A stretch of DNA of 64,000 bases from assembly GCA_965277805.1 (NCBI GenBank), contig OZ255842.1:480001-544000 (forward strand). Reading direction: 5' to 3'. The notes below the pieces were generated by a model that worked only from the letters and a program-made list of their open reading frames with translations, had not been told where the DNA came from and did not search any database. The translations under genes were made by a program, and so were the position numbers. The stretch comes from Candidatus Lustribacter sp. GTDB lineage: Bacteria; Vulcanimicrobiota; Vulcanimicrobiia; Vulcanimicrobiales; Vulcanimicrobiaceae. Positions 40,829 through 56,349 of this stretch are shown here, one piece after another (positions within the stretch are counted from its first letter, which is position 1; every line of letters starts with the position of its first letter).

Positions 40829-41947
40829 ATGATTTCGAGTTGGCGTGACGACCCGCGTCAAGCAACGCATCCGCTCTTCAACGAGAACGCACTCAAATTG
40901 GGATTGTTCGGACTGAACGCGGGCACCCAGGCGATGACTGTCGCGCCCGGCCAGTACGTTGCCGATTGGGATCGCTGTTCCGAGATCGTCGGAATCGCCG
41001 GTGGGCTCGGTCTGGAAGCGATGGTCTCGCTGGTCAGCTGGGGTGCAAAACCCGAACTCGAACCGTTCGCGTGGGCGACCGGCCTCGGCGCGCTGCACCC
41101 CGGCCCGGCGTTCGTTTCGACGATGCACGTGCAGCTGAACCATCCGACGTTCGTAGCGAAAGCGTCGGCGACCGTGCAGGCCGTGACGCACGGCCGCTTC
41201 GCGCTCAACATCGTCGCCGGCACAAATCCGGATACGTTTCGGGCGTTCGGCGCGGCGATGGAAGATCACGAAACGCGCTACGCGCACGCCGCGGAGTTCA
41301 TGGATTTGCTGAAACGTCTTTGGACGGAAGAGGCACCGTTCGATTTTAGCGGCCGTTTCTACCAGATCCCCAAGGCGGTATCGTTGCCCCGGCCGAGCTT
41401 TGGCTTGCCGCCGATCATGAATGCCGGCACATCCGATCGCGGGCAGCACTTCGCCGCGAAATATGCCGACTTGGTGTTTACGCACGTCGAAACGGACATG
41501 GACGATGCGCGCGTCCAACTCGCGGCGATCAAGGGACTCGCGCGCCGCGAATACGGCCGCGAGGTGCAAGTCTGGACGCACGGCTACGTGGTGGTTCGCG
41601 ACACGCAAGCCGAGGCCGATGCCTTTCTGCAGTACTACGCGGTCGACCACGCGGATACCGAACGGGTCGCGCGCTGGGTGAAGACGCTCGGCGAGAACGC
41701 GCAATCACAATCCGCGGCCGAAAAGTGGAAAGTCGCGCGCAATTGGGCCGCCGGGGGCGGGGTCGACCTCGTCGGAACACCCGAAAGTATCACGGAAAAA
41801 TTGCAGGCGCTCTCGCGCGCCGGGCTCGACGGCATCTTGCTCAAGTCGATCGAACCGGAGTTCATGCTCGAACGGTTCGGCCGCGACGTTTTGCCTCGCC
41901 TCGAGCAGGCCGGTCTGCGAAAACCGAGTAAGGCGCTACCCAGCTAG
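40829..41947 (+). CDS. Luciferase-like (LLM) flavin-dependent monooxygenase
   Basis: KLGLFGLN, HPTFVAK, GRFALNIVAG, FDFSGRFY, MNAGTSDRG, LVGTPE. Confidence 0.85.
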   Translation: MISSWRDDPRQATHPLFNENALKLGLFGLNAGTQAMTVAPGQYVADWDRCSEIVGIAGGLGLEAMVSLVSWGAKPELEPFAWATGLGALHPGPAFVSTMHVQLNHPTFVAKASATVQAVTHGRFALNIVAGTNPDTFRAFGAAMEDHETRYAHAAEFMDLLKRLWTEEAPFDFSGRFYQIPKAVSLPRPSFGLPPIMNAGTSDRGQHFAAKYADLVFTHVETDMDDARVQLAAIKGLARREYGREVQVWTHGYVVVRDTQAEADAFLQYYAVDHADTERVARWVKTLGENAQSQSAAEKWKVARNWAAGGGVDLVGTPESITEKLQALSRAGLDGILLKSIEPEFMLERFGRDVLPRLEQAGLRKPSKALPS

Positions 41948-41971
41948 CAGATGCTTCGCGAGGTGACATCC

Positions 41972-43570
41972 ATGCGGTCATTCCGTTCTGCCGCCAAAGT
42001 CGTGTTCGCCGCCGCGCTCTTTGCGCTGCCGGTGCTGGGAGTGGCGCCGAGTCAGCCGACCGTGGTGACGACCGACGGTCCCATCGCGGGCTTTCACCGT
42101 GACGGCGTGGTCCAGTTTCGCGGCATCCCGTATGCCGCGCCGCCGGTGGGCAATCTGCGCTGGCGTCCGCCGCAGCCGCATGCGAAGTGGACCGAGACCT
42201 TGGATGCCGTTTCATTCGGTGATACGTGCGTGCAGAATCAGCCCGGGCTCTTCGCGAAGCCGAGCCTCACCGAGAACTGCCTCTTCCTCAACATCTATAC
42301 GCCCGCGAACTACGCGACGAAGCCCGATCACCGCGGCGTGCTCGTGTGGTTCTACGGCGGCGCGATGACGGCCGGCGAGAGCAACGACTACGACGGCACC
42401 AAACTCGCCAAGATGGGCAACACCGTCGTCGTCACGGTCAACTTTCGCGTCGGCTTCTTAGGGTTTTTTGCGCAGCCGGCGCTGGATGCTGAAGGTCACG
42501 ACTTCGGCAACTACGGAACGATGGATCAGCAGTTCGCGCTGCGCTGGATCCAGCGCAACATCGCGAAGTTCGGCGGCGATCCCAAACGCGTGACGATCTT
42601 CGGTCAATCCGGCGGCGCGACGGCGGTCATGACCGATCTCGTTTCTCCGACCGCGGCCGGGCTCTTCCAACGGCTGATCAACGAAAGCGGAACGCACATC
42701 ACCGCCACGCCGCTCCCGGCGGCCGAAGCGCGCGGCGCGGCACTCGTCACCAAAGCGGGCTGCGCGCAGGCGCCGGACGTGATGCAGTGCATGCGCGCGC
42801 TGACGCCGTTGCAAATCCTCTCGCTCGGATTGCCGACGCCGAACTTCTTCGTGCTCGACGGCCACATCATCACCGGCGACCCCTACGAGCAGTACAAGAC
42901 CGGCAAGTTCAACCACGTGCCGATCATCACCGGTCTCGTTGCAGACGAACAGGCGTTCTTCTTGCCCGAGATCTCGGGCGGGCCGCCGGTTCCGCTGACG
43001 GTGTCCGACTTGAGCGACTTCGTCAATTCGTTCGGTGTGGACAACGCGGCTGGGATCAACAAGGTCTATCCGCTGGAGTCGTACCCGAGTCCGAGCGAAG
43101 CCGACATCGCGATTGCCGAAGGCTCGAAGGCCTGCATCGCGCGCACGTTCGATCGCGAGTGGTCGCAGTACGTGCCCGTGTATGCGTACCGCTTCGACGA
43201 CGAAACGGCGCCGTCGTACTTTCCGCCCGTCAGTTATCCGACGCGCGCGTTCCACACCTCGGAGCTGGAGTATCTGTTCGTGCTCTTCCACGGCGGCCAG
43301 GGCACGCCGCATCCGCTGAACGCGGCGCAAACGCATCTCTCCGACCAAATGGTCGCGTACTGGTCGACATTTGCGCGTACCGGCAATCCCAACAACCCGA
43401 TGGACCCGGTCTGGCAGCCGTATTCGGCGGCAGCGGACAACGTGCTCTCGCTGCGTCAGCCGAAGCCGCAGATGATGACCGGTTACGGATCGCAGAATAA
43501 CCTGCCCCACCACATGCACAACGCGTGTTCGTTCTGGGATCAGATCCCGTTGAGTGGCGCCCGTGGTTAA
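41972..43570 (+). CDS. Secreted type-B carboxylesterase
   Basis: FRGIPYAAPPVGNLRW, ENCLFLNIY, FGGDPKRVTIFGQSGG, FARTGNP. Signal peptide. Confidence 0.9.
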   Translation: MRSFRSAAKVVFAAALFALPVLGVAPSQPTVVTTDGPIAGFHRDGVVQFRGIPYAAPPVGNLRWRPPQPHAKWTETLDAVSFGDTCVQNQPGLFAKPSLTENCLFLNIYTPANYATKPDHRGVLVWFYGGAMTAGESNDYDGTKLAKMGNTVVVTVNFRVGFLGFFAQPALDAEGHDFGNYGTMDQQFALRWIQRNIAKFGGDPKRVTIFGQSGGATAVMTDLVSPTAAGLFQRLINESGTHITATPLPAAEARGAALVTKAGCAQAPDVMQCMRALTPLQILSLGLPTPNFFVLDGHIITGDPYEQYKTGKFNHVPIITGLVADEQAFFLPEISGGPPVPLTVSDLSDFVNSFGVDNAAGINKVYPLESYPSPSEADIAIAEGSKACIARTFDREWSQYVPVYAYRFDDETAPSYFPPVSYPTRAFHTSELEYLFVLFHGGQGTPHPLNAAQTHLSDQMVAYWSTFARTGNPNNPMDPVWQPYSAAADNVLSLRQPKPQMMTGYGSQNNLPHHMHNACSFWDQIPLSGARG

Positions 43571-44522
43571 TGATTTGTTTCACACGCTGTTTGCGGCAAG
43601 CGCGTTGCTCGCCGTGCCGTTCTCGATGACACCACGGATGACGGCCGCAGACACTCCGGCCGTCATCCGCATCGAAACCTCCGACTACGATCTCTCGGCG
43701 GAGCCATACTACGGCGTCGCTGCCGGAATTTTCGCCCGGCACGGCATCACCCTGCGGTTTCTTCCGGCCGTCGAGGGCGGGGCGAACATGATTCGCGATG
43801 TCGCGGGAAACAAAGCGGACATCGGATTTTCCAACTTGATCTCGATCGCGCGTGCGGTCCAATCCGGAGCGGCGATCGTCCTGATCGCGCCGGCCGGTCT
43901 CTACCGGCGGAAAGATCCGGTGAACGCGATCGTGGTTTCGCCCAACTCATCGATCCGCTCGGCCAAAGACCTCAACGGGAAGAACATCTCGAGTCCCTCG
44001 GGCGCGGGCAGCGCCGGCGCGCTCGCGCCGGCCGCGTGGATCGATCTAAACGGCGGCGATTCGACGTCGGTGCATTTCGTCACAGGTATCGCACCGATGG
44101 ATTTGCCGGCGGCGCTCAACGCCGGCACCGTGGCGGCCGGTGAGGTCGGCGATCCGCAACTGACGCTCTTGCGTCAGCGCGGCGACGTGCGTGTGCTCGC
44201 TGCCCCGTTCGACGCCGAAGGCGACAATTATCTGCTCGCAGGCTTCGTCGCTTCGAAGGCCTGGGTGGCGGCGAATCCCGCTGCCGCGCGTGGCTTCGTT
44301 GCGGCGATGAAGGAGACGGCGCGTTGGGCGAACGCGCATCGCACTCAAACGGGCCGGCTTCTTGCCGCGCGCCTCAAACTTACGCCGGCGGTTACTGAAG
44401 CGATGTCACGGACGAAATACGCCATAACGTTGACTGCCGAAACGATTCAGCCGCCGCTCGATATCGCCGCGAAGTACGGCATCATCAAGCCGATGAAAGC
44501 GAACGAATTGCTGCATCCATGA
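43554..44522 (+). CDS. ABC substrate-binding protein, SsuA/NMT1-THI5 type (start uncertain)
   Basis: GIFARHGI, DLNGK, WIDLNGGD, AKYGII. Confidence 0.8.
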   Translation: MAPVVNDLFHTLFAASALLAVPFSMTPRMTAADTPAVIRIETSDYDLSAEPYYGVAAGIFARHGITLRFLPAVEGGANMIRDVAGNKADIGFSNLISIARAVQSGAAIVLIAPAGLYRRKDPVNAIVVSPNSSIRSAKDLNGKNISSPSGAGSAGALAPAAWIDLNGGDSTSVHFVTGIAPMDLPAALNAGTVAAGEVGDPQLTLLRQRGDVRVLAAPFDAEGDNYLLAGFVASKAWVAANPAAARGFVAAMKETARWANAHRTQTGRLLAARLKLTPAVTEAMSRTKYAITLTAETIQPPLDIAAKYGIIKPMKANELLHP

Positions 44523-45286
44523 ACGCGGTGGGGCTCGTGGCCGTCGCTGCCGCCGGCGGCATTGCAGCGGCGATCAATTCGGCCGCCGGCGGCGGCAGCT
44601 TCATCTCGTTTCCGACGCTGGTGTTCCTCGGCGTGCCGCCGATCACGGCCAATGCGACGAACACGACCGCGATGTGGATCGGGCAAGCCGGCAGCATTCA
44701 CGGCTTCCGCGAGAACATGCTACGGCCGACGCCGCGTTTCATCGCGGCCATGGCCGTGTCGGTGATCGGCGGAATTCTCGGCGCGGTGATCTTGCTGCAC
44801 ACGCCGCAGCGCGCGTTCGATATCATCATTCCGTGGCTGCTGCTCTTCGCGACCATCATGTTCGCGATCAGCCCGTGGGTGCTCAAGCTCGCCAATCACC
44901 CGGGCGGCGTGACCGACGTCTCGTGGGCAAGCACGGTGCCGCTGTTCATCGTCGCGTTGTACGGCGGCTTCTTCGGCGGCGGCCAGGGCATCGTGCTGCT
45001 GGCGTACTTCGCTCTGATCGGCATGACCGACTTGCCGAAAATGAACGGCTTGAAGTCCGTGCTCGCGTTTATCAACAACGGCGTGCCCGTGATTCCCTTC
45101 GTGTTCGCCCGGGCGATCGCGTGGGACGTGGCGGCCGCGATGTGCCTGGGCGCGATCGCCGGCGGCTATTACGGCGCTCGCTTGACGCGCACGCTGCCGC
45201 CCCAGGTGATGCGGCGCGCGATCGTCGTGCTCGGGTTTATCGCGAGCGCCGCATTCTTCTGGCGCGCGCTCGCAGGCCCGCGCTGA
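44519..45286 (+). CDS. TauE/SafE family membrane exporter
   Basis: AGGGSFISFP, ANATNT, YGGFFGGG, GGYYGA. Confidence 0.87.
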   Translation: MNAVGLVAVAAAGGIAAAINSAAGGGSFISFPTLVFLGVPPITANATNTTAMWIGQAGSIHGFRENMLRPTPRFIAAMAVSVIGGILGAVILLHTPQRAFDIIIPWLLLFATIMFAISPWVLKLANHPGGVTDVSWASTVPLFIVALYGGFFGGGQGIVLLAYFALIGMTDLPKMNGLKSVLAFINNGVPVIPFVFARAIAWDVAAAMCLGAIAGGYYGARLTRTLPPQVMRRAIVVLGFIASAAFFWRALAGPR

Positions 45287-45308
45287 GCACCGCGCGTAAC
45301 GGATAGTC

Positions 45309-46265
45309 ATGAAACGTTCGGCCGCACTCTTGGCGCTGGGCGGCGCCGTCGCACTTCCCCATCGGGCCCGCGCTCAGAGCCTGACGAAGATCCGGTGTGC
45401 TCAACCGCCGGGTACGGCTTCCGCGATCATCGTTTACGCGCAGAACTCGGGGATTTTCAAGAAATACGGCTTGGACGTCGAGATCGTGAAGATGAACAGC
45501 GGCGCGGCAATCATCGCGGCGCTCGCCGGCGGTTCGGTCGACGTCGGCAACGGCAGCACGTTTTCGGTGGTCACGGCGTACGCGCACGGCATCCCGATGC
45601 AAATCGTTGCGGGCGGTCCCGTGTACCAGCCGTCGGCAACGGTGCCGTACGGCATGATCTTGGTAGGCAAGAATTCGCCGCTGAAGACCGCGGCGGATTT
45701 GAACGGCAAGACGTTCGGCCTCTCCGTTGCGAAAGGCGATCTTAACTCGGTGACGTCGCAAGCGTGGGTCGAGCAGCACGGCGGTGATTGGTCGACCGTC
45801 AAGGTGCTCGAGCTGCCGCAGGATACGATGGTTGCGGCGATCGACGCCGGCCGGATCGATGCGTTCACGATCCAGAGCCCCGGCACCGCAATCGCGCTCT
45901 CGAGCGGAAAACTCCGCACGTTCGGCCGGCCGTACGACGCGGTCGGACGCCAATTCAGCATTGCCGCCTGGTATGCGCTGAGCAAGTGGTCGACGGATAA
46001 TCCGCAAACGGCGCGAGCCTTCGCGCAAGCCGTCGGCGAGTCATCACGCTACGCCAACAGCCACGGCCCGCAGATCATGCCCGTCATGGCGCAGTTTGCG
46101 GGCGTCGATACGTCGGTGCTCGAAGCGGCGGCGCGCGCGCCGTTTACCGATCGCGCCGATCCGCCCGATTTTCAGGCGATCATCGATCTCGAAGTGAAGT
46201 ATAAGGTGATCGATCACGGCTTCGACGCCAAAGACTTCATCTCGCCCATCGCGATGAGGCGCTAA
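45309..46265 (+). CDS. ABC substrate-binding protein, SsuA/NMT1-THI5 type
   Basis: GIFKKYGLDV, MNSGAA, DLNGK, GRIDA. Confidence 0.85.
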   Translation: MKRSAALLALGGAVALPHRARAQSLTKIRCAQPPGTASAIIVYAQNSGIFKKYGLDVEIVKMNSGAAIIAALAGGSVDVGNGSTFSVVTAYAHGIPMQIVAGGPVYQPSATVPYGMILVGKNSPLKTAADLNGKTFGLSVAKGDLNSVTSQAWVEQHGGDWSTVKVLELPQDTMVAAIDAGRIDAFTIQSPGTAIALSSGKLRTFGRPYDAVGRQFSIAAWYALSKWSTDNPQTARAFAQAVGESSRYANSHGPQIMPVMAQFAGVDTSVLEAAARAPFTDRADPPDFQAIIDLEVKYKVIDHGFDAKDFISPIAMRR

Positions 46266-46279
46266 GGCACGTTCCCGTA

Positions 46280-47143
46280 ATGGAACACGGGCGTTTCGCG
46301 TACAGCGCGATCGCCGATCGTCCGCGCCGGCGCTGGCCAAACGGTGCGCGGCTGGCGCTCTGGGTGATACCGAACATCGAGTACCTCCGCTTCGATCAAC
46401 TCTTGCGGTCATCGTCGCCGCGTGCCGTTGCGCCGGACATGATCACGTATGCGTCGTACGACTACGGCAACCGGGCCGGCATCTGGCGCATCATGGCGCT
46501 GCTCGACCAGTTCAACATTCAGGCCACGGTCGCGCTCAACGGCGACGTATGCGACGTGTATCCGGCCATCATCCGCGAAGGCAGCCGCCGCTGGTGGGAA
46601 TGGATGGGACACGGTGCTACCATCAGCCGGGGACTGAGCGGCCTCGCTGATTCCGAGGAACGTTCGCTGATCGCGCAGACGCTGGCGAAGATCGAAGCGG
46701 CGACCGGGATCCGTCCGCGCGGCTGGCTCGGACCGGCGCTCGCCGAGAACGCACGAACGCCCGATCTCCTCAAGGAGGCGGGTATCGACTACGTCGCCGA
46801 TTGGGTCAACGACGATCAGCCGTACGCGCTGCAGACCACGCACGGCGAACTGCATTCCGTGCCGTACTCGACGGCAATCAACGATATGGCGGCGTTTCCC
46901 GTGCATTCGCCGGTGGAGTTTTTACGCATGATCAAAGATCAGTTCGACACCCTCTACGGCGAGGCGGCCGAGACGGCCAAGGTGATGGCGATTTCGTTGC
47001 ATCCCGGGAAGATCGGCGTTCCGCACCGCATCCGCTATCTCGCCGAAGCGTTGGGTTACATCGACGGCCACGAGAGCATCTGGTGGGCGACCGGCAGCGA
47101 GATACTCGATGCCTACCGGCAAGCCGGCGGGGAGCGTTCCTGA
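46280..47143 (+). CDS. Polysaccharide-deacetylase family amidohydrolase (PuuE-like)
   Basis: WPNGARLALWVIPNIE, DYGNRAGIWR, PRGWLGP, DWVNDDQP, ISLHP. Confidence 0.85.
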   Translation: MEHGRFAYSAIADRPRRRWPNGARLALWVIPNIEYLRFDQLLRSSSPRAVAPDMITYASYDYGNRAGIWRIMALLDQFNIQATVALNGDVCDVYPAIIREGSRRWWEWMGHGATISRGLSGLADSEERSLIAQTLAKIEAATGIRPRGWLGPALAENARTPDLLKEAGIDYVADWVNDDQPYALQTTHGELHSVPYSTAINDMAAFPVHSPVEFLRMIKDQFDTLYGEAAETAKVMAISLHPGKIGVPHRIRYLAEALGYIDGHESIWWATGSEILDAYRQAGGERS

Positions 47144-47838
47144 TGCCGCGCGTTTGGGATGCGTTTCTCACACCGCAAGATCGGCTCGTCGATGTAGGAC
47201 GCTCGCGCGGACGGTTCGGTTTCGGCGAACGCCCGGCGCTGCTGCTCGTCGATCTCTATCGCGCGGTCTTCGGCGATGCGCCGGTGGCCTTGCCCGACGC
47301 GATGCGCGAGTGGCCGAGTTCGTGTGGGCTCGCTGCGTGGGAAGCCATCCCGCATATTCAGCGCCTCCTCGCGGCGGCGCGCGGTGCCAAGATTCCGGTG
47401 TTCTATTCCACCGACATGAACATGCACGACACGCCGCTCGCGCCGTGGTCACGCTCGCGGCTGCGCGGTGCGGTTGCGCCGGAGGGCCCGGAGATGGCCG
47501 CCCGCCGCTTGCGGATGAACGAGATCATCGATGAGGTCGCGCCGCTGCCGGGCGAGCTCGTCATCGCGAAGGCTGCGCCGAGCGTGTTTTCGGGCACGCC
47601 GCTGTTGGGGCAGCTGGTTGCGCGCCGGGTCGACACGCTCGTCGTTTGCGGCGAGAGCACCAGCGGTTGCGTTCGCGCGACCGTGGTCGACGGCTGCACG
47701 CAGCGCTTCAACATGATCGTCGCCGAAGAGTGCACCTTCGACCGCACGCAGGCCTCGCACGCCGTCAACTTGTTCGATATGAACCAAAAGTACGCCGACG
47801 TCGTACCGCTCGACGAGATCATCGCACACCTGAAATGA
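47143..47838 (+). CDS. Isochorismatase/cysteine hydrolase (maleamate amidohydrolase-like)
   Basis: GFGERPALLLVD, KAAPSVFSGT, GESTSGCVRATVVD, KYADV. Confidence 0.85.
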   Translation: MPRVWDAFLTPQDRLVDVGRSRGRFGFGERPALLLVDLYRAVFGDAPVALPDAMREWPSSCGLAAWEAIPHIQRLLAAARGAKIPVFYSTDMNMHDTPLAPWSRSRLRGAVAPEGPEMAARRLRMNEIIDEVAPLPGELVIAKAAPSVFSGTPLLGQLVARRVDTLVVCGESTSGCVRATVVDGCTQRFNMIVAEECTFDRTQASHAVNLFDMNQKYADVVPLDEIIAHLK

Positions 47839-48755
47839 AAATTGACGTTCACCACCACGTGGCCCCGGATTTCTGGCTCGCGCTCCCCGGCGGAACGCCG
47901 GACGAGGCGCGCGTGTTTCGCGACTGGACCGTTGCGCGCGCGATCGAGGAGATGGACCGCGACGGCGTCGCCACCGTATACGCATCGTTGCCCCTTTCGG
48001 GGAGCCGCTTCGACGATCGCGCGGCCGCGCGCAAGCTGACGCGCCGCTGCAACGAGTACATGGCGCAGCTGCGCCGCGAGCATCCGGGGCGCTTCGGGAT
48101 GTTCGCGCTGCTGCCGATGCCGGACATCGAAGGAACGCTGGCCGAGATCGCCTACGCCTACGATGAGCTCAACGCCGACGGGATCGGCTTGCTGACGAGT
48201 TACGGCGACGGGTGGCTCGGTGACCCGCGCTTCGATCCGGTGTTCGACGAACTGAATCGCCGCAAGGCCGTGGTCTTCACGCATCCGGTCAGCAACGCGG
48301 CGTGCACGCACCGTCAGGATTGGCTGGGCCCGGCGCCGATCGACTACGCGACCGATACGACGCGCGCGATCGCCGAGTACGTCTTCAAGGGCGCTTCTCA
48401 ACGTTTTCCAAACGTGCGCATGATTTTCTCGCACGCCGGCGGGACGATGCCCTACCTCGTGCAGCGCTTCATCAACGGCGGCAACGGCAAGTTCAAAGAG
48501 ATCACGCCCCACGGCTTTCTCGCCGAGGCGGAAAAGATGTACTACGATACCGCCCAAGTGGCGAGTCGCGGCACGATGCTGGCGTTGCAAACCGTCATCC
48601 CCGATTCAAACATCCTCTTCGGTTCCGACTACCCGTACCGCACCTGCGGCTGGACCGCCGACCTGCTTACGGCCGGCAACGCCTTCGATGCCCAAGGCTT
48701 GCAGGCAGTCTTCCACGACAACGCCGCCCGATTGCTGGGGTCGCCGAAGTCGTAG
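47835..48755 (+). CDS. Amidohydrolase-2 family (ACMSD-like) decarboxylase/hydrolase
   Basis: IDVHHH, VFTHP, SHAGGTMP, LFGSDYP. Confidence 0.87.
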   Translation: MKIDVHHHVAPDFWLALPGGTPDEARVFRDWTVARAIEEMDRDGVATVYASLPLSGSRFDDRAAARKLTRRCNEYMAQLRREHPGRFGMFALLPMPDIEGTLAEIAYAYDELNADGIGLLTSYGDGWLGDPRFDPVFDELNRRKAVVFTHPVSNAACTHRQDWLGPAPIDYATDTTRAIAEYVFKGASQRFPNVRMIFSHAGGTMPYLVQRFINGGNGKFKEITPHGFLAEAEKMYYDTAQVASRGTMLALQTVIPDSNILFGSDYPYRTCGWTADLLTAGNAFDAQGLQAVFHDNAARLLGSPKS

Positions 48756-49886
48756 ATGACGCGACTGGCGCTCGGCACGCAGAATCGGCTCAAGCTGGGC
48801 ATCTTCTCGGCAAATCTGTCCTCCGGAATGAACGCCACGCTCGTTCCGGAGCGGTGGCAGGCAACGTGGGATGAGAACCGGCGTCTCGCGCAACTCGCGG
48901 ACGAACGCGGCTTGGAATTCATCATCCCGCTGGCACGGTGGCGCGGTCTCGGCGGCGCGACGAACTACCAGGACTGGGGCTTCGAAACGTTGACCTGGGC
49001 GTCGGCGCTGCTCGCGTGCACGAAACGGGTCCACGTCTTCGGCACGGTGCACGTGATGCTGTTTCATCCGGTCGTCGCCGCGAAGATGATGATCACGGCC
49101 GACCATGTCGGGCACGGGCGCTTCGGCGTCAACCTCGTCGTCGGCCCGGGCAAAGCGCAGATGCCGATGTTCGGTATCGCCGTACCGGAACACGACGACC
49201 GCTACGTGCTCGCCCAGGAGTGGCTCGATATCGTCCGCGGCTTATGGCGCAATCCCGACGACTTCGACTTCGACGGTACCTACTTTCAACTCAAGGAACT
49301 GCACGCGTCGCCCGGGCCGTACGGTTCGGCCGAACCGCTGTTTCTCAACGCCGGCGCGTCGGGCGTGGGCCAAGACTTCGCGGTGCGGAATTCGGATGCG
49401 TTTTTCACCTCGGTGAAGAACTCTTCGTTCGACGAAGCCACCGGGATCGTGACGCCCGATATTCCGGTTGTCGCCGGCATCGTTCGCAGCGTGCGGGCGC
49501 GCGCGGCGGCGATCGGCCGCGACATCGGCGTGTATACGAACGTTAACGTTATTTGCCGGCCGACGCACAAAGAAGCAATCGACTACTATCGCTACGCGCT
49601 GGAAGAGAACGGCGATTGGCCGGCGATCGACAACGAGATACACGGGCGAACCGGAATCACCGCCGATCCATCGTCGCCGGAATATCTCGACCGGCGCCGG
49701 CGCCAGATCCGGCAATTTCCGGTGATCGGCGATCCCGACCGCGTTGCTCAGTTGCTCGCCACGCTCAACGAGATCGGTTTCGACGGCCTCGGCTTAACGA
49801 TGGTCAACTACCTCGACGAACTCCCCTATATCTGCGACGAAATACTCCCCCGCCTCGAACGCGCCGGTCTCCGCAGGCCGTTATAG
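48756..49886 (+). CDS. Luciferase-like (LLM) flavin-dependent monooxygenase
   Basis: KLGIFSAN, PLARWRG, FETLTWA, HPVVAAK, GRFGVN, NAGASGVG. Confidence 0.88.
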   Translation: MTRLALGTQNRLKLGIFSANLSSGMNATLVPERWQATWDENRRLAQLADERGLEFIIPLARWRGLGGATNYQDWGFETLTWASALLACTKRVHVFGTVHVMLFHPVVAAKMMITADHVGHGRFGVNLVVGPGKAQMPMFGIAVPEHDDRYVLAQEWLDIVRGLWRNPDDFDFDGTYFQLKELHASPGPYGSAEPLFLNAGASGVGQDFAVRNSDAFFTSVKNSSFDEATGIVTPDIPVVAGIVRSVRARAAAIGRDIGVYTNVNVICRPTHKEAIDYYRYALEENGDWPAIDNEIHGRTGITADPSSPEYLDRRRRQIRQFPVIGDPDRVAQLLATLNEIGFDGLGLTMVNYLDELPYICDEILPRLERAGLRRPL

Positions 49887-51297: not shown

Positions 51298-52047
51298 CTA
51301 CTGCATCACCATTCCGCCGTCGACGACGATCGTTTGGCCCGTGATGTACGTTGCGTCGGGCGAGCAGAGAAAGGCGACGGCGCCGGCGATGTCGTTCGGG
51401 GTTTGGTCGTACTTGAGGGCGCGGCGCGAACGGTAGTCGTTCCAGCGCGCTTCGGGCACGCCGCCGGTGGCCTCGACTTCGATCAGTCCCGGTGCGATTG
51501 CGTTCACCGTCACGCGATCCGGCCCGAGTTCGTTTGCGATCGAGCGCGTCATCGCGATGATCGCGCCCTTCGTGGCGACGTAGTGCAGCAGGCGCGAGGC
51601 TCCCCAGAGCGCCGTATCGGAGGCCATGTTCACGATCGCGCCGCCGCCGGCCGCGACCAGCAGCGGACCAAATTGTTTGCACGCGAGCCACGTGCCCTTG
51701 ACGTTCACGCGAAAGAGCCGCTCCCACTCTGCTTCCGGAATTTCGTCGTACGCTTTTCCGCCGACCGAGTTTGCAATGGCAGCATTGTTCACGAGCGCAT
51801 CGATGCGGCCGCACTCGGCGACGTGTTTCGCTAATGCGGCCAGCGACGCGGCATCGGCGATATCGGTTTGCACGAACGATGCCGACAAACCGCTGCCTTC
51901 GATCGCGGCTGCGGCTCCGGCACCGAGGGCGGGGTCGAGTTCGGCGATCACGACGTGCCGGCCGCCGGCGGCTAGCCGCTCGGCAATCGCGCGCCCGAGG
52001 CCGCGTCCGGCACCGGTGACGACGGCGATGCGGCGTTCATCCATCAC
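51298..52047 (-). CDS. Classical SDR oxidoreductase
   Basis: [35 protein letters not shown]. Confidence 0.92.
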
Positions 52048-52946
52048 ACCGTTGCCGCTTCGTGCCCGGCATCCGGCACGCCGGCCATGGCCGCGCGGAT
52101 TTCAGCGCTCGGCGGACCGGCGGTACCCCACAGGTCCATCGCTGCGGGCGTGCGTTGCCAAACTTGCGGCTCCCAAGTTGCTTCGTCGGCGATCTCGATG
52201 CCGTCGGCAATGAGTTCGACGACATAGCCCGATGGTTCGACGAAGTAGTTGAACACTTGCGAGCCGGGACCGTGGCGCCCGGTTCCCCACATCAACGGAG
52301 CACCGAACGTGCGCACGCGCCCCTGAGCGCGAAAGAGCTCGTCGATCGAGCCCATCGTCCACGACGTATGATTGTACGCCGCGTGCGGTGCGGCGTTGAA
52401 CGCGATCGAGTGATGCTCGGGATTGCAGCGCAGGAACGACATCTGATGTTCGCTCCAGTCGGAGATCTTGAACCCCAGCACGTCGTGGTAGAATGCCGTC
52501 ACGCGGTCGATGTCCGGGGTGTTGACCACGATGTGCGCGAGCTTCTGCGGCACGGGACCGCGCGCGGCCGACGGCCCCGTGGCGACGCCGGCGGAGACTT
52601 CGATGCAGCGGTTGTCCGGGTCGAGGAATTGAAAGCCATAGCCGCCGCCGGGCGTGGAAAGATGGTGCGGGGAGGCGATCGTCGGGATGCCGTCGCGATC
52701 GAGATCCCGCGCGGCGGCGTCGACGTCGTGTTCGGTGGCGAGACCGAACGCAATGCGATCGATGCGGCGCTCGGGTCCGGGAACCAGCGTCAACTGGAAG
52801 GGTTCGTCGAGCTGCGTCTGCAGATACGCGCGCCCGTGATGATCGGCACCGGTGTCGCGCAGACCCCAGGCTTCGGTGAAGAATGCCTTCGAACGTTCGA
52901 ACTCCGGCGTTGCGATCGCGACGTAACGCAGGTGGGTGATGTTCAT
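52044..52946 (-). CDS. VOC-family (type I extradiol) dioxygenase
   Basis: Two VOC domains. [29 protein letters not shown]...YFVEPSG..VE. Confidence 0.85.
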
Positions 52947-53752
52947 GTGGACTGATCTCCCGGCGCCGTATCGGAACGCCAGCCGTAGGCTTGAGAAAGT
53001 TCGAGCGCCGTTTCGCGCACGGCCGGGACGACGACATCGTCGACGTTCGCCGTGGTGAGCGATTCCGCTGCCGCTGACACGTTGATGGCGGCGATCGTCT
53101 CGCCCGCGCTGTTGCGAATCGGCGCCGCGACGGACCGGATGCCGAACTCAAATTCTTGATTGGAGGTTGCGTAACCGCGATGCCGGATCTGCGCGATCTC
53201 GGCGAGGAACGCGCGCTTGTCGGCCAGGGTGTGGTCGGTGTAGCTTTCGAGCGGGTTGGCGATCAGCCATTCGGTGATCCAGGCATCGCTCTTGGCGGCG
53301 AGCAGCGTCTTGCCCATCGCAGTCGCGTGCGCGGGCAAGCGCGAACCGACGTGGATCGCGCTCGACAGCAGCGCCCGCGACGCGGCCCGGCCGACGTACA
53401 CCACATCTCTGCCGTCGAGTATTCCGACGTGTGCCGAGCCGTTGGTGCGATCGCGCAGACGTTCCAAATACGGCTGCGCAAGTTCGGGCAGTTGCAGGTT
53501 GGCGAGCGCCGAGAAGCCGATCTCCAGCACCTTCGGCGTGAGCTCGTACCGCTTGGTCACCGCATCGCGGCGCAGATAGCCGAGCGATTCAAGCGTGTGC
53601 AGAAAGCGGAACGGTTCGGTGCGGCGCCAGCCGAGTTGCCGCGCCACGTCGCCGAGCGAGAGCGTCGGGTGTTCGCGATCGAAGCAGCGCAGCACGTCGA
53701 GCCCGCGCATCAAACCGCCGACGAGATAGCGGTCGTCGCCGGCCACCATCAC
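52943..53752 (-). CDS. IclR-family transcriptional regulator (PcaR-like)
   Basis: RGLDVL, HTH, VGSRLPAHATAMGK, SVAAPI. Confidence 0.92.
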   Translation of the reverse strand: MMVAGDDRYLVGGLMRGLDVLRCFDREHPTLSLGDVARQLGWRRTEPFRFLHTLESLGYLRRDAVTKRYELTPKVLEIGFSALANLQLPELAQPYLERLRDRTNGSAHVGILDGRDVVYVGRAASRALLSSAIHVGSRLPAHATAMGKTLLAAKSDAWITEWLIANPLESYTDHTLADKRAFLAEIAQIRHRGYATSNQEFEFGIRSVAAPIRNSAGETIAAINVSAAAESLTTANVDDVVVPAVRETALELSQAYGWRSDTAPGDQST

Positions 53753-55311
53753 GCGCCCACCCATAGGCTTTGCGTGAGACGGCGCAGCATCGCGAGGGCG
53801 CTGAGCGGCGCCAACGCGCTCGTCTTCGGGTTTTCCGGACTCGGCAAGTTGTCGAGCCGCACGGTGAAGGTGCCGAAGTCGCCGTTCGCTTCGATCTCGT
53901 GTGTGTTGGTCGTCGACGCCGGATCGGCGACGACGCTCACGCTCACCGCAACGCCGTCGCCGGCCAGTGCGAGTACGGCGGCAACGTTGACGTTGCTCGG
54001 GAAACCGCGCACTGCATCGGCGACGCTGCCCTCGAAAATCGTGGTGGCCGCGGTCAACGCATCGAGGTCGATGCCGTGCTCGACGACGTGCGGCGCACCG
54101 GCCAGACCGCGCGGCGGTTTGGTCGTGCGCAGACGCAGGCTGCGCAAGCCGCCGAGCGCGCCCGCGCGAATGCCGTCGATGCCCGCAATCGCACCCGACG
54201 GGACGAGGATGCGCCGTCCGTGCGCGCGTGCAACGGCGCGCAACTCGGCCACGAACGCCGCATCGACGAGCGCGCCGGCGCTCAGCACCATGACGTCGGC
54301 ACCGCTCGCGAGCCAGCCGGCGGCGTAACGTCGCACGACGGCCGGACCGGCTGCTTCGATCACGAGTGCGGCGTGCTCGGGCAACCGTTCCAAATCGGCG
54401 AAGGCGAGCGCGGATTGACGACGCGCATACACGTCGACGCGCTCGGCTTCGGCGTCGAGCCGGCCGATCGCGGTGACGCGGGCCATGCCGCCGCTGCCGC
54501 GCGCGATGCCGTCGATCAGCACCGTTGCAATAGCGCCCGCGCCGGCGACGGCGACGCGCACGACGCGCGCGGGAAGTTCCACCGCATCGATGAACGTGCG
54601 GACGGCCGCGGCGAACTCATCAGGACGTTCGATGTTCGGTGCGTGACCGGCGTCCGCGATCGTGGCGAGCCGCGCATCGGGGATACGTTCGGCGATCGTT
54701 TGCGAGAGCGAGAGGCCGACGACGCTGTCGTGTTCGCCACACACGATCAGCGCCGGTACGGCGATCGCGTCGAGCCACGGCAGCGCGTCGGTGGCGGCGA
54801 TGATATCGGTGACGTAACGGTAGCCCGCCGGGCGCGCGCGGCGCATGTTGCGTGCGATTTCTTCCAGCACGTCGGCGGCTGCATTCGGCCCGGCGATCTC
54901 GCCCGCGCGTTCGCCGGCGCGCGCTTGCAGCTCGGCCGCCAGCGCATAACGCCCCTCGACCCAGCGCGCGCGTTCGTCCGGCGCCAGCGTGTTGCGGCCG
55001 AGGGTGGTGTCGGAGAGCACGAGGGAGCGGACGAGGTGCGGATGGCGGCGTGCCAGCGCGAGCGCGGCGAGGGCGCCGAAGGAGACGCCCACCACGTGGG
55101 CCGGTTCGCGATCGAGCAGCGTCGCGAGATCGTCGGCCACCGCGTCGAGCGAGGGCGGCCCGGCCGGGTCGGGCGAGTCGCCATAACCGCGCAGGTCGGG
55201 GGCGATCAGCGCGTAGTCGCCGGCGAGGCGGTCGATTTGGCGCTGCCATGACGTGGCGGAGGAGCCGATCCCGTGGAGGAGCAGAACCGTGGGCCCGGTG
55301 CCGGCCCGCAC
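53749..55311 (-). CDS. Fusion: alpha/beta hydrolase + aspartate-dehydrogenase (NadX)-like domain
   Basis: N-half LLHGIG, DLRGYG, GVSFG, AGHAPNIE. C-half GAGAIA, EAAG, SGAIAGIDG, TKPP, FPSNVNVAA, NTHEI, NPKTS. One uninterrupted frame. Confidence 0.85.
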   Translation of the reverse strand: MRAGTGPTVLLLHGIGSSATSWQRQIDRLAGDYALIAPDLRGYGDSPDPAGPPSLDAVADDLATLLDREPAHVVGVSFGALAALALARRHPHLVRSLVLSDTTLGRNTLAPDERARWVEGRYALAAELQARAGERAGEIAGPNAAADVLEEIARNMRRARPAGYRYVTDIIAATDALPWLDAIAVPALIVCGEHDSVVGLSLSQTIAERIPDARLATIADAGHAPNIERPDEFAAAVRTFIDAVELPARVVRVAVAGAGAIATVLIDGIARGSGGMARVTAIGRLDAEAERVDVYARRQSALAFADLERLPEHAALVIEAAGPAVVRRYAAGWLASGADVMVLSAGALVDAAFVAELRAVARAHGRRILVPSGAIAGIDGIRAGALGGLRSLRLRTTKPPRGLAGAPHVVEHGIDLDALTAATTIFEGSVADAVRGFPSNVNVAAVLALAGDGVAVSVSVVADPASTTNTHEIEANGDFGTFTVRLDNLPSPENPKTSALAPLSALAMLRRLTQSLWVGA

Positions 55312-55342
55312 CGCGTTGAGCGCTTCCAGCGTTGGCGTGACG

Positions 55343-55391
55343 TGTCTCCTATACGAAACAGGTTTTCAAATACGAACTACTCTGTTATACT
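55343..55391. promoter_or_regulatory. Divergent promoter region with putative operator(s) and extended -10
   Basis: Imperfect palindrome TGTCTCCTATACGAAACA (14/18 self-complementary). Second ATACGAA-containing box at 55362-55377. TG-T-TATACT at 55383-55391. Confidence 0.5.
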
Positions 55392-55425
55392 CTGGGCGAG
55401 TTCGCTACGTCAAGGGAGATCCGCC

Positions 55426-56349
55426 GTGCCCAACGCCGACCACGCCCGCATCGGACGCTACCTCGAAAAGTCTTGGGATTGGGACGCCTTTCCGGCCAAT
55501 TCCGGCTACCCGGAACTAGAGCGCGCGCAGATGCGCTACATCGGGGCCGGCGGCTCGCCGAAGACCGACGACCGCAGCACGCTGCCGCCCGGCGCGTTCA
55601 CGTGCAGCCTGATCTTCCAAGAGCCGGGCCGCAAAGCGTCGACGCACCATCACAAGATCGAAGAGCTGTTCTTCGTGCACCGCGGCAACCTCACGATGTC
55701 GTGGCAGTTCGGTGATGAGGTCGTCGATTTCGTTGTCGGTCCCGGCGATGCGGTGCTCAACCCGACGAGCCGGCCGCACGGTTTTCGCAATGACGGCACC
55801 GAGGACTGCATCATGCAGATCATGGTCGCCACCGCCGCGCCGATGAACCCGACGTACACCGATCATCCGGCCGAACACGCGGTGAGTCCGCTGCGTCCGG
55901 CCGCGCCGGAGAAACGCGCCGAGTATCTACAAGAAGTGGAACGTTATCTCTCGCGCGCATCGGCGGTGACGCCGCAGATCGCCACGGTGGAAGGCGGCAC
56001 GTTCACGGCATCGCCGTACGTGATGTCGGCGGCGGCGGGCGGTCTCGTTACGCCGACGCACTTCACCTACGCCGTCGACACGCTCACGCGCGGCGCGGCG
56101 ACCCCGGCGTACTCGCTGGCGGTCGAAGAAGCGTTCATGATGCTCGACGGCGTGCTCGACGTGGAGACGTTCGACGCGGCCGGTAACGCGACGGTCGCGC
56201 GCATCGGTCCGCGCGATCTCGCGCTGATCCCGGCGGGGACGAAACATCGGTTGGTCAACCGCGACGCCGCGACCGCGCGTTTCGGTGCGATCGCGGGTTC
56301 GAAAGACGCCGTGCCGATCGCATGGCGCGAGGCGGTCGCGGCGCGCTGA
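55426..56349 (+). CDS. Bicupin protein
   Basis: SD AAGGGAG. Domain 1 THHHKIEE...PHGFRN retains metal ligands. Domain 2 (VEEAF...KHRLVN) lacks the first His pair. Confidence 0.8.
   Translation: MPNADHARIGRYLEKSWDWDAFPANSGYPELERAQMRYIGAGGSPKTDDRSTLPPGAFTCSLIFQEPGRKASTHHHKIEELFFVHRGNLTMSWQFGDEVVDFVVGPGDAVLNPTSRPHGFRNDGTEDCIMQIMVATAAPMNPTYTDHPAEHAVSPLRPAAPEKRAEYLQEVERYLSRASAVTPQIATVEGGTFTASPYVMSAAAGGLVTPTHFTYAVDTLTRGAATPAYSLAVEEAFMMLDGVLDVETFDAAGNATVARIGPRDLALIPAGTKHRLVNRDAATARFGAIAGSKDAVPIAWREAVAAR

Follow-up and report, generated by a model that had tools for sequence, protein, structure and literature searches.

The window analysed here, 64,000 nucleotides (nt) of a Candidatus Lustribacter genome (G000, contig C1, positions 480001–544000), contains on its minus strand a single open reading frame (ORF) that joins an alpha/beta-hydrolase to a domain of the aspartate dehydrogenase (AspDH)/NadX family. 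The fusion is genuine and of long standing in its Eremiobacterota genus, both of its halves are functional, and its context is catabolic-looking and far from nadA and nadC. Starting from the observed architecture, conservation, selection on both halves, operon, and phylogenetic position, we arrive at a reading to which we give about an even chance: a catabolic operon enzyme whose AspDH half acts on an aspartate-like dicarboxylate downstream of ring cleavage.

The ORF occupies positions 53749–55311, from a GTG at 55311 to the stop codon at 53751–53749, and encodes 520 amino acids (aa) in one frame; the same interval on the plus strand contains stops and was rejected as a coding frame. Residues 1–245 (54577–55311, minus strand) form the alpha/beta-hydrolase domain, which is recognized by Pfam as Abhydrolase_1 over residues 7–230 (102.7 bits, cut-off 25.8) and as Abhydrolase_6 (91.7 bits, cut-off 26.3). 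Residues 248–520 (53752–54570, minus strand) form the AspDH/NadX-family domain, where both Pfam domains of the AspDH family exceed the gathering score: NAD_binding_3 at residues 257–371 (59.1 bits, cut-off 24) and Asp_DH_C at residues 420–506 (104.4 bits, cut-off 27). The first-pass annotation of this DNA had described a one-frame fusion of a hydrolase with a NadX-type domain, which the Pfam matches bear out on the minus strand; the motifs that it quoted, GVSFG (containing Ser77) and AGH (containing His223), are both found in the 520-aa frame. The joint, which it had placed at about 54550–54600, lies at FIDAVELPARVVRVAVAG (residues 240–257, 54541–54594). The junction itself is FIDAVELPARVVRV (residues 240–253, 54553–54594, minus strand), and it is supported by the confidence of the AlphaFold2 model, the bridging contigs described below, and the ends of stand-alone hydrolases.

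Most homologues begin about 12 residues upstream (MPETVAPQAALHTV...) of the position that corresponds to the GTG at 55311. The window frame is likewise open upstream of this codon (55312–55368), as far as a TGA at 55368–55366, and reads like the N-terminus of the longer homologues. ATG, GTG, and TTG are absent from this open stretch, but a CTG at 55329 stands where the relative G766 has a TTG, and a conserved AGGAGA is present at 55345–55350. The true start may be either the GTG at 55311 or the CTG at 55329.

The AlphaFold2 model of the fused protein has a mean predicted local distance difference test score (pLDDT) of 86.9 and a predicted TM-score (pTM) of 0.79. There is no linker at the joint in this model: the last helix of the hydrolase enters the first strand of the Rossmann domain directly, with pLDDT values of 94, 94, and 89 for the 10-residue blocks spanning residues 231–260. 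The two halves were matched separately by Foldseek, and its TM-scores are given throughout as normalized to the target.

An assembly artefact, or a stop codon lost very recently in this genome only, would be the simplest dismissal of the fusion, and we consider it hardly credible. The first-pass annotation had proposed to look for read support across the junction, and contigs rebuilt from public runs do cross it without indels: record 1 of run X1 spans 53500–54797 and record 19 of run X3 spans 54469–55371, and neither shows a differing letter or a gap relative to the window. The contig from run X2 breaks at 54553/54555 and so does not bridge the joint, which is no evidence against it, and no indel rows were seen at the junction among the rebuilt contigs of the three runs, all of which derive from one sample, possibly the one behind the genome assembly. 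Of 82 returned database proteins, moreover, 53 carry both the hydrolase domain and PF01958 (62–93% identity, 457–543 aa, several sources); together with the bridging contigs, they contradict an assembly error. Intact fused frames are present in the window's genome and in its relatives G766, G771, and G145. The artefact explanation can draw on two further genomes of the genus in which the gene is broken: in G770 it lies in pieces, with four single-base insertions of which one falls exactly at the domain joint (locus L014, 8001–9564; also L157), and in G769 it is split over frames (L156, with L160 a second view of the same locus). Because both copies come from few-contig assemblies with several frame breaks each, and show no single clean stop, we read these breaks as assembly indels, although the two could still be pseudogenes. 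Annotation pipelines would call at least two genes at each of these broken copies.

Both halves of the fused gene are under purifying selection. Pairwise ratios of nonsynonymous to synonymous substitution (dN/dS) among G000, G766, and G771 are 0.11–0.14 for the hydrolase half and 0.09–0.12 for the AspDH half; comparisons with G145 give 0.32–0.43, with dS near saturation. A soil metatranscriptome (X5) contains six short matching pieces, one of which, 151 nt long, is identical over 55179–55329, but these are no basis for claiming transcription, as DNA can occur in metatranscriptome libraries.

Judged by its sequence, the N-terminal half belongs with the serine hydrolases and resembles esterases and lactonases. 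Ser77 (55081–55083), Asp195 (54727–54729), and His223 (54643–54645), together with the Rossmann glycines, are invariant in all 27 aligned homologues, and we infer that these three residues form the catalytic triad. The nearest structures are the TtEst esterase from Thermogutta (4uhc/4uhd, TM-score 0.78–0.79) and PcaD (2xua, 0.75). PcaD is also the best named family, at 134.6 bits on the NCBIfam model TIGR02427, far under the cut-off of 255.85. As a meta-cleavage-product hydrolase it falls far below the threshold, with 53.9 bits on the HsaD model NF045632 against a cut-off of 400, and the structure of CumD ranks 33rd in Foldseek (TM-score 0.66).

The C-terminal half belongs to the AspDH family and is predicted to be a dehydrogenase dependent on NAD(P). 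Its dinucleotide motif is GAGAIA (54526–54543), and His471 (53899–53901) is present at the catalytic position, which we take to be that of His193 in Thermotoga maritima NadX. The catalytic His is reportedly essential for the activity of the T. maritima AspDH. By the conservation counts made in this analysis, on which our comparison of the pockets rests, stand-alone sequences have His at this position in 217 of 226 cases and nad-linked ones in all 33, whereas the fused family has His in 40 of 53 members and Gln in 13, among them the fused protein of G145, which is that genome's sole AspDH gene. The dinucleotide motif differs as well: 52 of 53 fused-family sequences have GxGxxA, compared with GxGxxG in 196 of 206 stand-alone sequences. 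This replacement hints at NADPH as cofactor and hence at catalysis in the direction of reduction. AspDH forms dimers, and by analogy the fused protein probably does so too.

A NadX phylogeny, another check suggested by the first-pass annotation, places the fused domain outside the group of nadA/nadC-adjacent genes. We collected 79 metagenomic AspDH loci (L074–L153), of which 33 have nadA or nadC at a distance of no more than 1.5 kb and 14 are clearly unlinked; the other 32 are too short to tell. In a quick tree, the 33 nadA/nadC-adjacent genes fall on one side of a branch with an SH-aLRT support of 91, and all 10 fused rows fall outside. A second clade, of 20-odd soil AspDH sequences, has gamma-glutamyltranspeptidase, alpha/beta-hydrolase, and TPP enzyme genes nearby (as in L142), and a TPP enzyme gene also lies directly upstream of the stand-alone AspDH gene in genome G205 (L039).

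The fusion is followed on the minus strand by three genes. An IclR-family regulator recognized by Pfam (PcaR/PcaU/PobR-like, 52943–53764; TIGR02431 254.9 bits, below the cut-off of 284.75) overlaps the 3' end of the fusion by 16 nt and is itself overlapped by 4 nt by a two-domain VOC-type extradiol dioxygenase gene (52044–52946), whose product has as its best solved relative the uncharacterized protein 3b59 (203.7 bits). After a further 4-nt overlap comes a short-chain dehydrogenase/reductase (SDR) oxidoreductase gene (51298–52047), and the three overlaps together indicate that fusion, IclR, dioxygenase, and SDR form one transcript. A bicupin of 307 aa is encoded divergently on the plus strand (55426–56349, from a GTG at 55426, with the ribosome binding site AAGGGAGA at 55412–55419); only its N-terminal cupin has a His/Glu metal motif, and it adjoins the hydrolase gene in all eight genus loci examined (those of seven relatives and the window). 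The spacer of about 100 nt between bicupin and fusion contains a putative operator/promoter motif (55348–55390, minus strand), seen in an alignment of six genus loci as a TTCGTAT direct repeat with GAAAAC..GTTTC, which is conserved also in G767 and G768, both of which are without the operon's IclR gene.

The order of bicupin, fusion, IclR, and dioxygenase genes is common to the window, G766, G771, and G145 (65% identity); in G145, an inserted ABC transporter precedes the SDR gene. Upstream of the bicupin gene in G145 (L038, 5114–9147) are genes for an NMT1-type binding protein, an aromatic-hydroxylase-like monooxygenase with FAD_binding_3, and proteins of the Amdase/maleate-isomerase and PEP-mutase/isocitrate-lyase families, which may point to the substrate class of the pathway. 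The bicupin itself met only "cupin domain-containing protein" clusters in a protein-cluster search and weak matches in the PDB (E = 4.5e-4 and worse, with quercetinase at about 0.004); a flavonol or depside substrate was considered and dropped, the PDB matches being too weak to carry the idea. In another part of the window (40850–49886, plus strand), a run of genes for two luciferase-like monooxygenases, a type-B carboxylesterase, two NMT1-type binding proteins, a TauE exporter, a polysaccharide-deacetylase-family protein, an isochorismatase-family hydrolase, and an Amidohydro_2 protein has a flavor of N-heterocycle or ester catabolism; the G145 locus shows no synteny with it.

The favored reading combines these elements as follows. 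The fusion is the first gene of an operon under an IclR regulator of PcaR type, comprising fusion, regulator, dioxygenase, and SDR with the bicupin divergent, and this operon would serve to degrade a compound with an aromatic or N-heteroaromatic ring. At a step after cleavage of the ring, the dehydrogenase half would convert L-aspartate/iminoaspartate, or a closely similar 2-amino or 2-imino dicarboxylate, into the corresponding 2-oxo acid or back, and feeding quinolinate synthase would not be its main job. The substrate, the direction of the reaction, and any hand-over between the active sites are what we infer here, while setting and phylogeny point to catabolism over dedicated NAD synthesis. 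The non-NAD, catabolic role put forward in the first-pass annotation is upheld as far as the operon far from nadA and nadC, the position outside the nad-linked clade, and the Gln for His in 13 of 53 sequences are concerned, but the domain may still serve NAD synthesis.

A number of observations weigh against the favored reading, and the first group concerns mainly NAD synthesis. The domain passes the NadX equivalog model TIGR03855, albeit marginally (210.7 bits, cut-off 206.55), while it stays below the cut-offs of the AspDH models PRK13304 (245 versus 267 bits) and PRK13302 (199.5 versus 253), and apart from the glycine motif its AspDH motifs are canonical. No nadB scored over the NCBIfam cut-off in the window's genome or in five relatives, and NadA is present in all six. 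Hydrolase, dioxygenase, SDR, IclR regulator, and bicupin all fall below every equivalog cut-off, so that none of them assigns a substrate. The AspDH genes, finally, are distributed in a complementary way: the fusion alone is found in G145, G766, and G771, a stand-alone gene alone in G768, and both in G000, a pattern that would also fit a need of every genome for one AspDH. Since there is no confident nadB and TIGR03855 is passed, a NadX role would be compatible with genome content. The C-terminal domain might, then, be NadX after all and supply iminoaspartate to NadA, with the fusion to a hydrolase incidental or a second job, an explanation that has in its favor the four points just given on TIGR03855 (with His471 and all family motifs in place), nadB, NadA, and gene distribution.

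We nevertheless consider this explanation unlikely. As stated in the first-pass annotation, nadA and nadC are absent from the window; the two genes lie about 830 kb away (C1:1365037–1366736), together beside an NrtR-like regulator gene (C1:1364367–1368236, L003), and the fused domain is neither near them nor within the clade that is linked to them. The use of GxGxxA by almost the whole fused family, where stand-alone enzymes have GxGxxG, likewise speaks against a plain NadX. Because the sole AspDH of G145 is of the Gln type and yet nadA is kept, another source of iminoaspartate must exist in that genome. G767 (77% complete) is without either AspDH, and both G767 and G768 lack the fused domain.

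A plausible substitute source is a divergent NadB. The highest match to the nadB model in G000 (403 bits) was rejected as NadB, being SdhA (734 bits on TIGR01812) with SdhB alongside. The next is an ambiguous, stand-alone SdhA/NadB-like flavoprotein (C1:5438605–5443185, L005) at 281 bits against a cut-off of 452.75 (TfrA 355, sdhA 334, all below cut-off), which has no adjoining Fe-S partner and is flanked by genes for a MocR-type regulator and a UbiD-like protein. Counterparts with 284–289 bits on the nadB model occur in four of the five relatives; the four with any nadB-model match at E ≤ 1e-60 show the same two-match pattern, and G767 has none. This flavoprotein may be a divergent NadB, that is, an L-aspartate oxidase. 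The window's genome also holds a stand-alone AspDH paralogue (C1:2236223–2239486, L001), which is 44% identical to the fused domain and scores 357 bits on PRK13302 against the cut-off of 253. It lies in another non-nadA context, with a GntR regulator gene on one side and, on the other, an RraA/HMG-aldolase-like gene and then an acyl-CoA-dehydrogenase-like gene, and has an orthologue only in G768 (81% identity).

The second group of opposing observations concerns the coupling of the two halves. In G767 and G768, the hydrolase (80–84% identical to that of the window) is a separate gene whose end, three residues beyond ...GVE, falls exactly at the joint. Directly behind it comes the SDR gene and the bicupin gene is still upstream, but AspDH, IclR, and dioxygenase are all gone, and no orthologue of the fused AspDH was found elsewhere in G767 or in G768 (97% complete); a 62–64% identical dioxygenase occurs in another context. 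Bicupin, hydrolase, and SDR therefore make up a constant core, and AspDH, IclR, and dioxygenase a dispensable block. In a quick hydrolase tree with some long branches, G767, G768, and the P0087 and P0088 clusters nest within the fused clade, where the Gln-type fused group branches first, so that the stand-alone state is probably derived. The first-pass annotation had named separate genes in relatives as a sign against the fusion; the hydrolase does stand alone in two of the eight genus genomes, but its tree makes these secondary losses. The presence of the hydrolase alone in two genomes descended from fused ancestors nonetheless means that its coupling to AspDH is not obligatory, and the combined loss implies that the hydrolase works without the dehydrogenase, which travels with the dioxygenase and not with the hydrolase. 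This loss could also have been one contiguous deletion. The Rosetta-stone reading of the first-pass annotation, by which the fusion as such ties the dehydrogenase to the product or substrate of the hydrolase, is weakened by the same two genomes.

These findings lend themselves to a further explanation, in which loss of a stop codon or an insertion at the C-terminus of the hydrolase joined two neighbors by chance. The halves would then act on different compounds, with the AspDH a generic enzyme converting between L-aspartate and oxaloacetate plus ammonium for nitrogen or carbon balance. The joint indeed falls where the hydrolase ends naturally when it stands alone, and besides G767 and G768 other close relatives have one half alone: P0086 (AspDH only, 64%), P0087 (hydrolase only, 65%), and the P0088 cluster. 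Six related metagenomic loci have the hydrolase only loosely near a stand-alone AspDH, at about 2.1 kb in five and 4.4 kb in one, and in L142 an opposed gamma-glutamyltranspeptidase gene separates the two. A search of 401 Alphaproteobacteria with the fused protein of Roseibium (see below) gave no match over both halves and, among the matches listed, no adjacent hydrolase and AspDH; one unpublished genome, G445, matched the hydrolase half only. Among stand-alone AspDH genes with long flanks, the nearest (L074) sits in an unrelated context, where its neighbors encode a two-component system, a creatininase-family protein, and a protein of the outer membrane, and is a further point on the opposing side. 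Should the halves prove unrelated, the case would warn against taking any fusion whatever for a Rosetta stone.

The wider distribution of such fusions makes a chance event, in our view, somewhat doubtful, although this explanation and the NadX one both retain considerable weight. The fusion is rare. Within the taxonomic family of the window's genome (348 genomes, 78 genera), the locus occurs in all eight genomes of the window's genus and in none of 340 genomes from the 77 other genera; in a sample of the phylum it was found in 2 of 201 genomes, both of the same genus. The closest named record is a Candidatus Eremiobacteraeota metagenome-assembled genome (96% DNA identity). Among 1.84 billion representatives clustered at 50% identity, however, there are four full-length fused clusters: the family of the window, P0084 (44% identity, 524 aa), P0085 (41%, 538 aa), and P0101 (34%, 532 aa), the last being WP_352940068.1 of Roseibium sp. 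SCP14, named "aspartate dehydrogenase". All three have, like the window protein, the hydrolase at the N-terminus and the AspDH at the C-terminus, along with the motif of the nucleophilic serine and the His. In a tree built from 160 AspDH domains, the family of the window groups with the AspDH-only P0086 in a single clade (SH-aLRT 100), P0084 and P0085 are found among stand-alone forms in the same 35-row clade, and P0101 is far away. The 19 fused rows require five state changes, of which at least four are forced by well-supported branches. At least four separate fusion gains or losses favor functional coupling, and the recurrence of independent fusions argues for some functional tie between an alpha/beta-hydrolase and this branch of AspDH. 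Further points against a chance joining are the same N-to-C order in at least four places of the tree, the retention of the fused state down to 62% identity under constraint on both halves, and the linker-free, confidently predicted junction.

Other searches added little to this distribution. In a plasmid collection, 13 records matched, none of them over both halves, and a contig scan with a single fused protein returned one family member (L014) and 20 unrelated hydrolases. An Achromobacter locus (L018) was matched as far as residue 305, but its ORF list holds no fused ORF. A 558-aa frame in G205 (L039) was rejected as a fusion, being an over-extended frame over a stand-alone AspDH gene beside a TPP enzyme gene. 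A metagenome scan with the stand-alone AspDH P0089 recovered its own contigs poorly; it brought up a single contig of 1 kb (L132) and a locus with 66% identity (L074).

A bolder version of the coupling can be envisaged, which we regard as a long shot. Here, the fusion would be a channelling device, in which the hydrolase frees a labile enamine or imine dicarboxylate and the fused AspDH-type domain immediately reduces it with NADPH to a stable L-amino acid. The labile species would be iminoaspartate/aminofumarate-like or aminomuconate-like and would stem from an N-acyl, ester, or lactone precursor provided by the neighboring dioxygenases, while in the subgroup with Gln for His the chemistry would have changed once more.

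Genes of the AspDH family, the fused database proteins included, are routinely annotated as "aspartate dehydrogenase / NadX" and hence assigned to the synthesis of NAD. A conserved fusion to a hydrolase within a presumably aromatic-catabolic operon, a subgroup with the catalytic His exchanged, and a position outside the nadA-linked clade provide testable cases of another role in bacteria, at a time when the animal homologue has just been reassigned to tryptophan catabolism. The findings also bear on NAD synthesis in this Eremiobacterota genus, where nadA and nadC are present and nadB is unrecognized by the curated model. The novelty lies in the architecture, which combines known families: it is real, a full-text literature search found no description of a hydrolase–AspDH fusion, and the proteins stand in public databases as "aspartate dehydrogenase".

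Several known systems invite comparison. The hydrolase half resembles PcaD, whose fused forms PcaDC and PcaCD (136.5 bits on NF051488 and 127.7 bits on NF051487, far below the cut-offs of 390 and 430) are an earlier example of such a hydrolase joined to another enzyme of its pathway under a PcaR-type regulator, with the difference that the partner is a decarboxylase there and a dehydrogenase here. The dehydrogenase half has the same two-domain fold as NadX of T. maritima (TM1643, 1j5p/1h2h) and of Archaeoglobus fulgidus (2dc1), with phmmer E values of 2e-30 to 1e-29 and TM-scores of 0.82–0.85 (0.85 for 2dc1), and shares with NadX the motifs GxGxx[GA], EAA, PSGAIxGxD, KPP, FPxNxNVAA, NxHE, and NPKTS. 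It differs from these enzymes in being fused to a hydrolase, without nadA/nadC neighbors, and outside the nad-linked clade, and in having GxGxxA for GxGxxG and a family-specific Arg395.

A role of AspDH-family proteins outside NAD synthesis, which the first-pass annotation had inferred, is not in itself novel. The mesophilic "non-NadB type" AspDHs of Pseudomonas aeruginosa PAO1 and Ralstonia eutropha JMP134 (Li et al. 2011, cited in PMC5554190) are reportedly, like the window protein, bacterial AspDH-family enzymes whose role is not obviously NAD synthesis and, unlike it, stand-alone proteins of about 27 kDa. Human ASPDH is reported in a preprint (10.64898/2026.06.05.730449) to be a 2-aminomuconate reductase of tryptophan catabolism. 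This is an AspDH homologue in aromatic catabolism that reduces an unstable enamine arising after ring cleavage, and thus a precedent for a ring-fission substrate. According to the preprint, the catalytic His of human ASPDH lies two residues upstream of the AspDH position. The corresponding residue of the fused family, position 469, is Asn in all 53 sequences, and those that have the His have it in the canonical position; the window protein is therefore not a 2-aminomuconate reductase of the metazoan type. If the channelling reading were true, the fusion would be a bacterial counterpart of the animal 2-aminomuconate reductase that reached its function by a different active-site solution.

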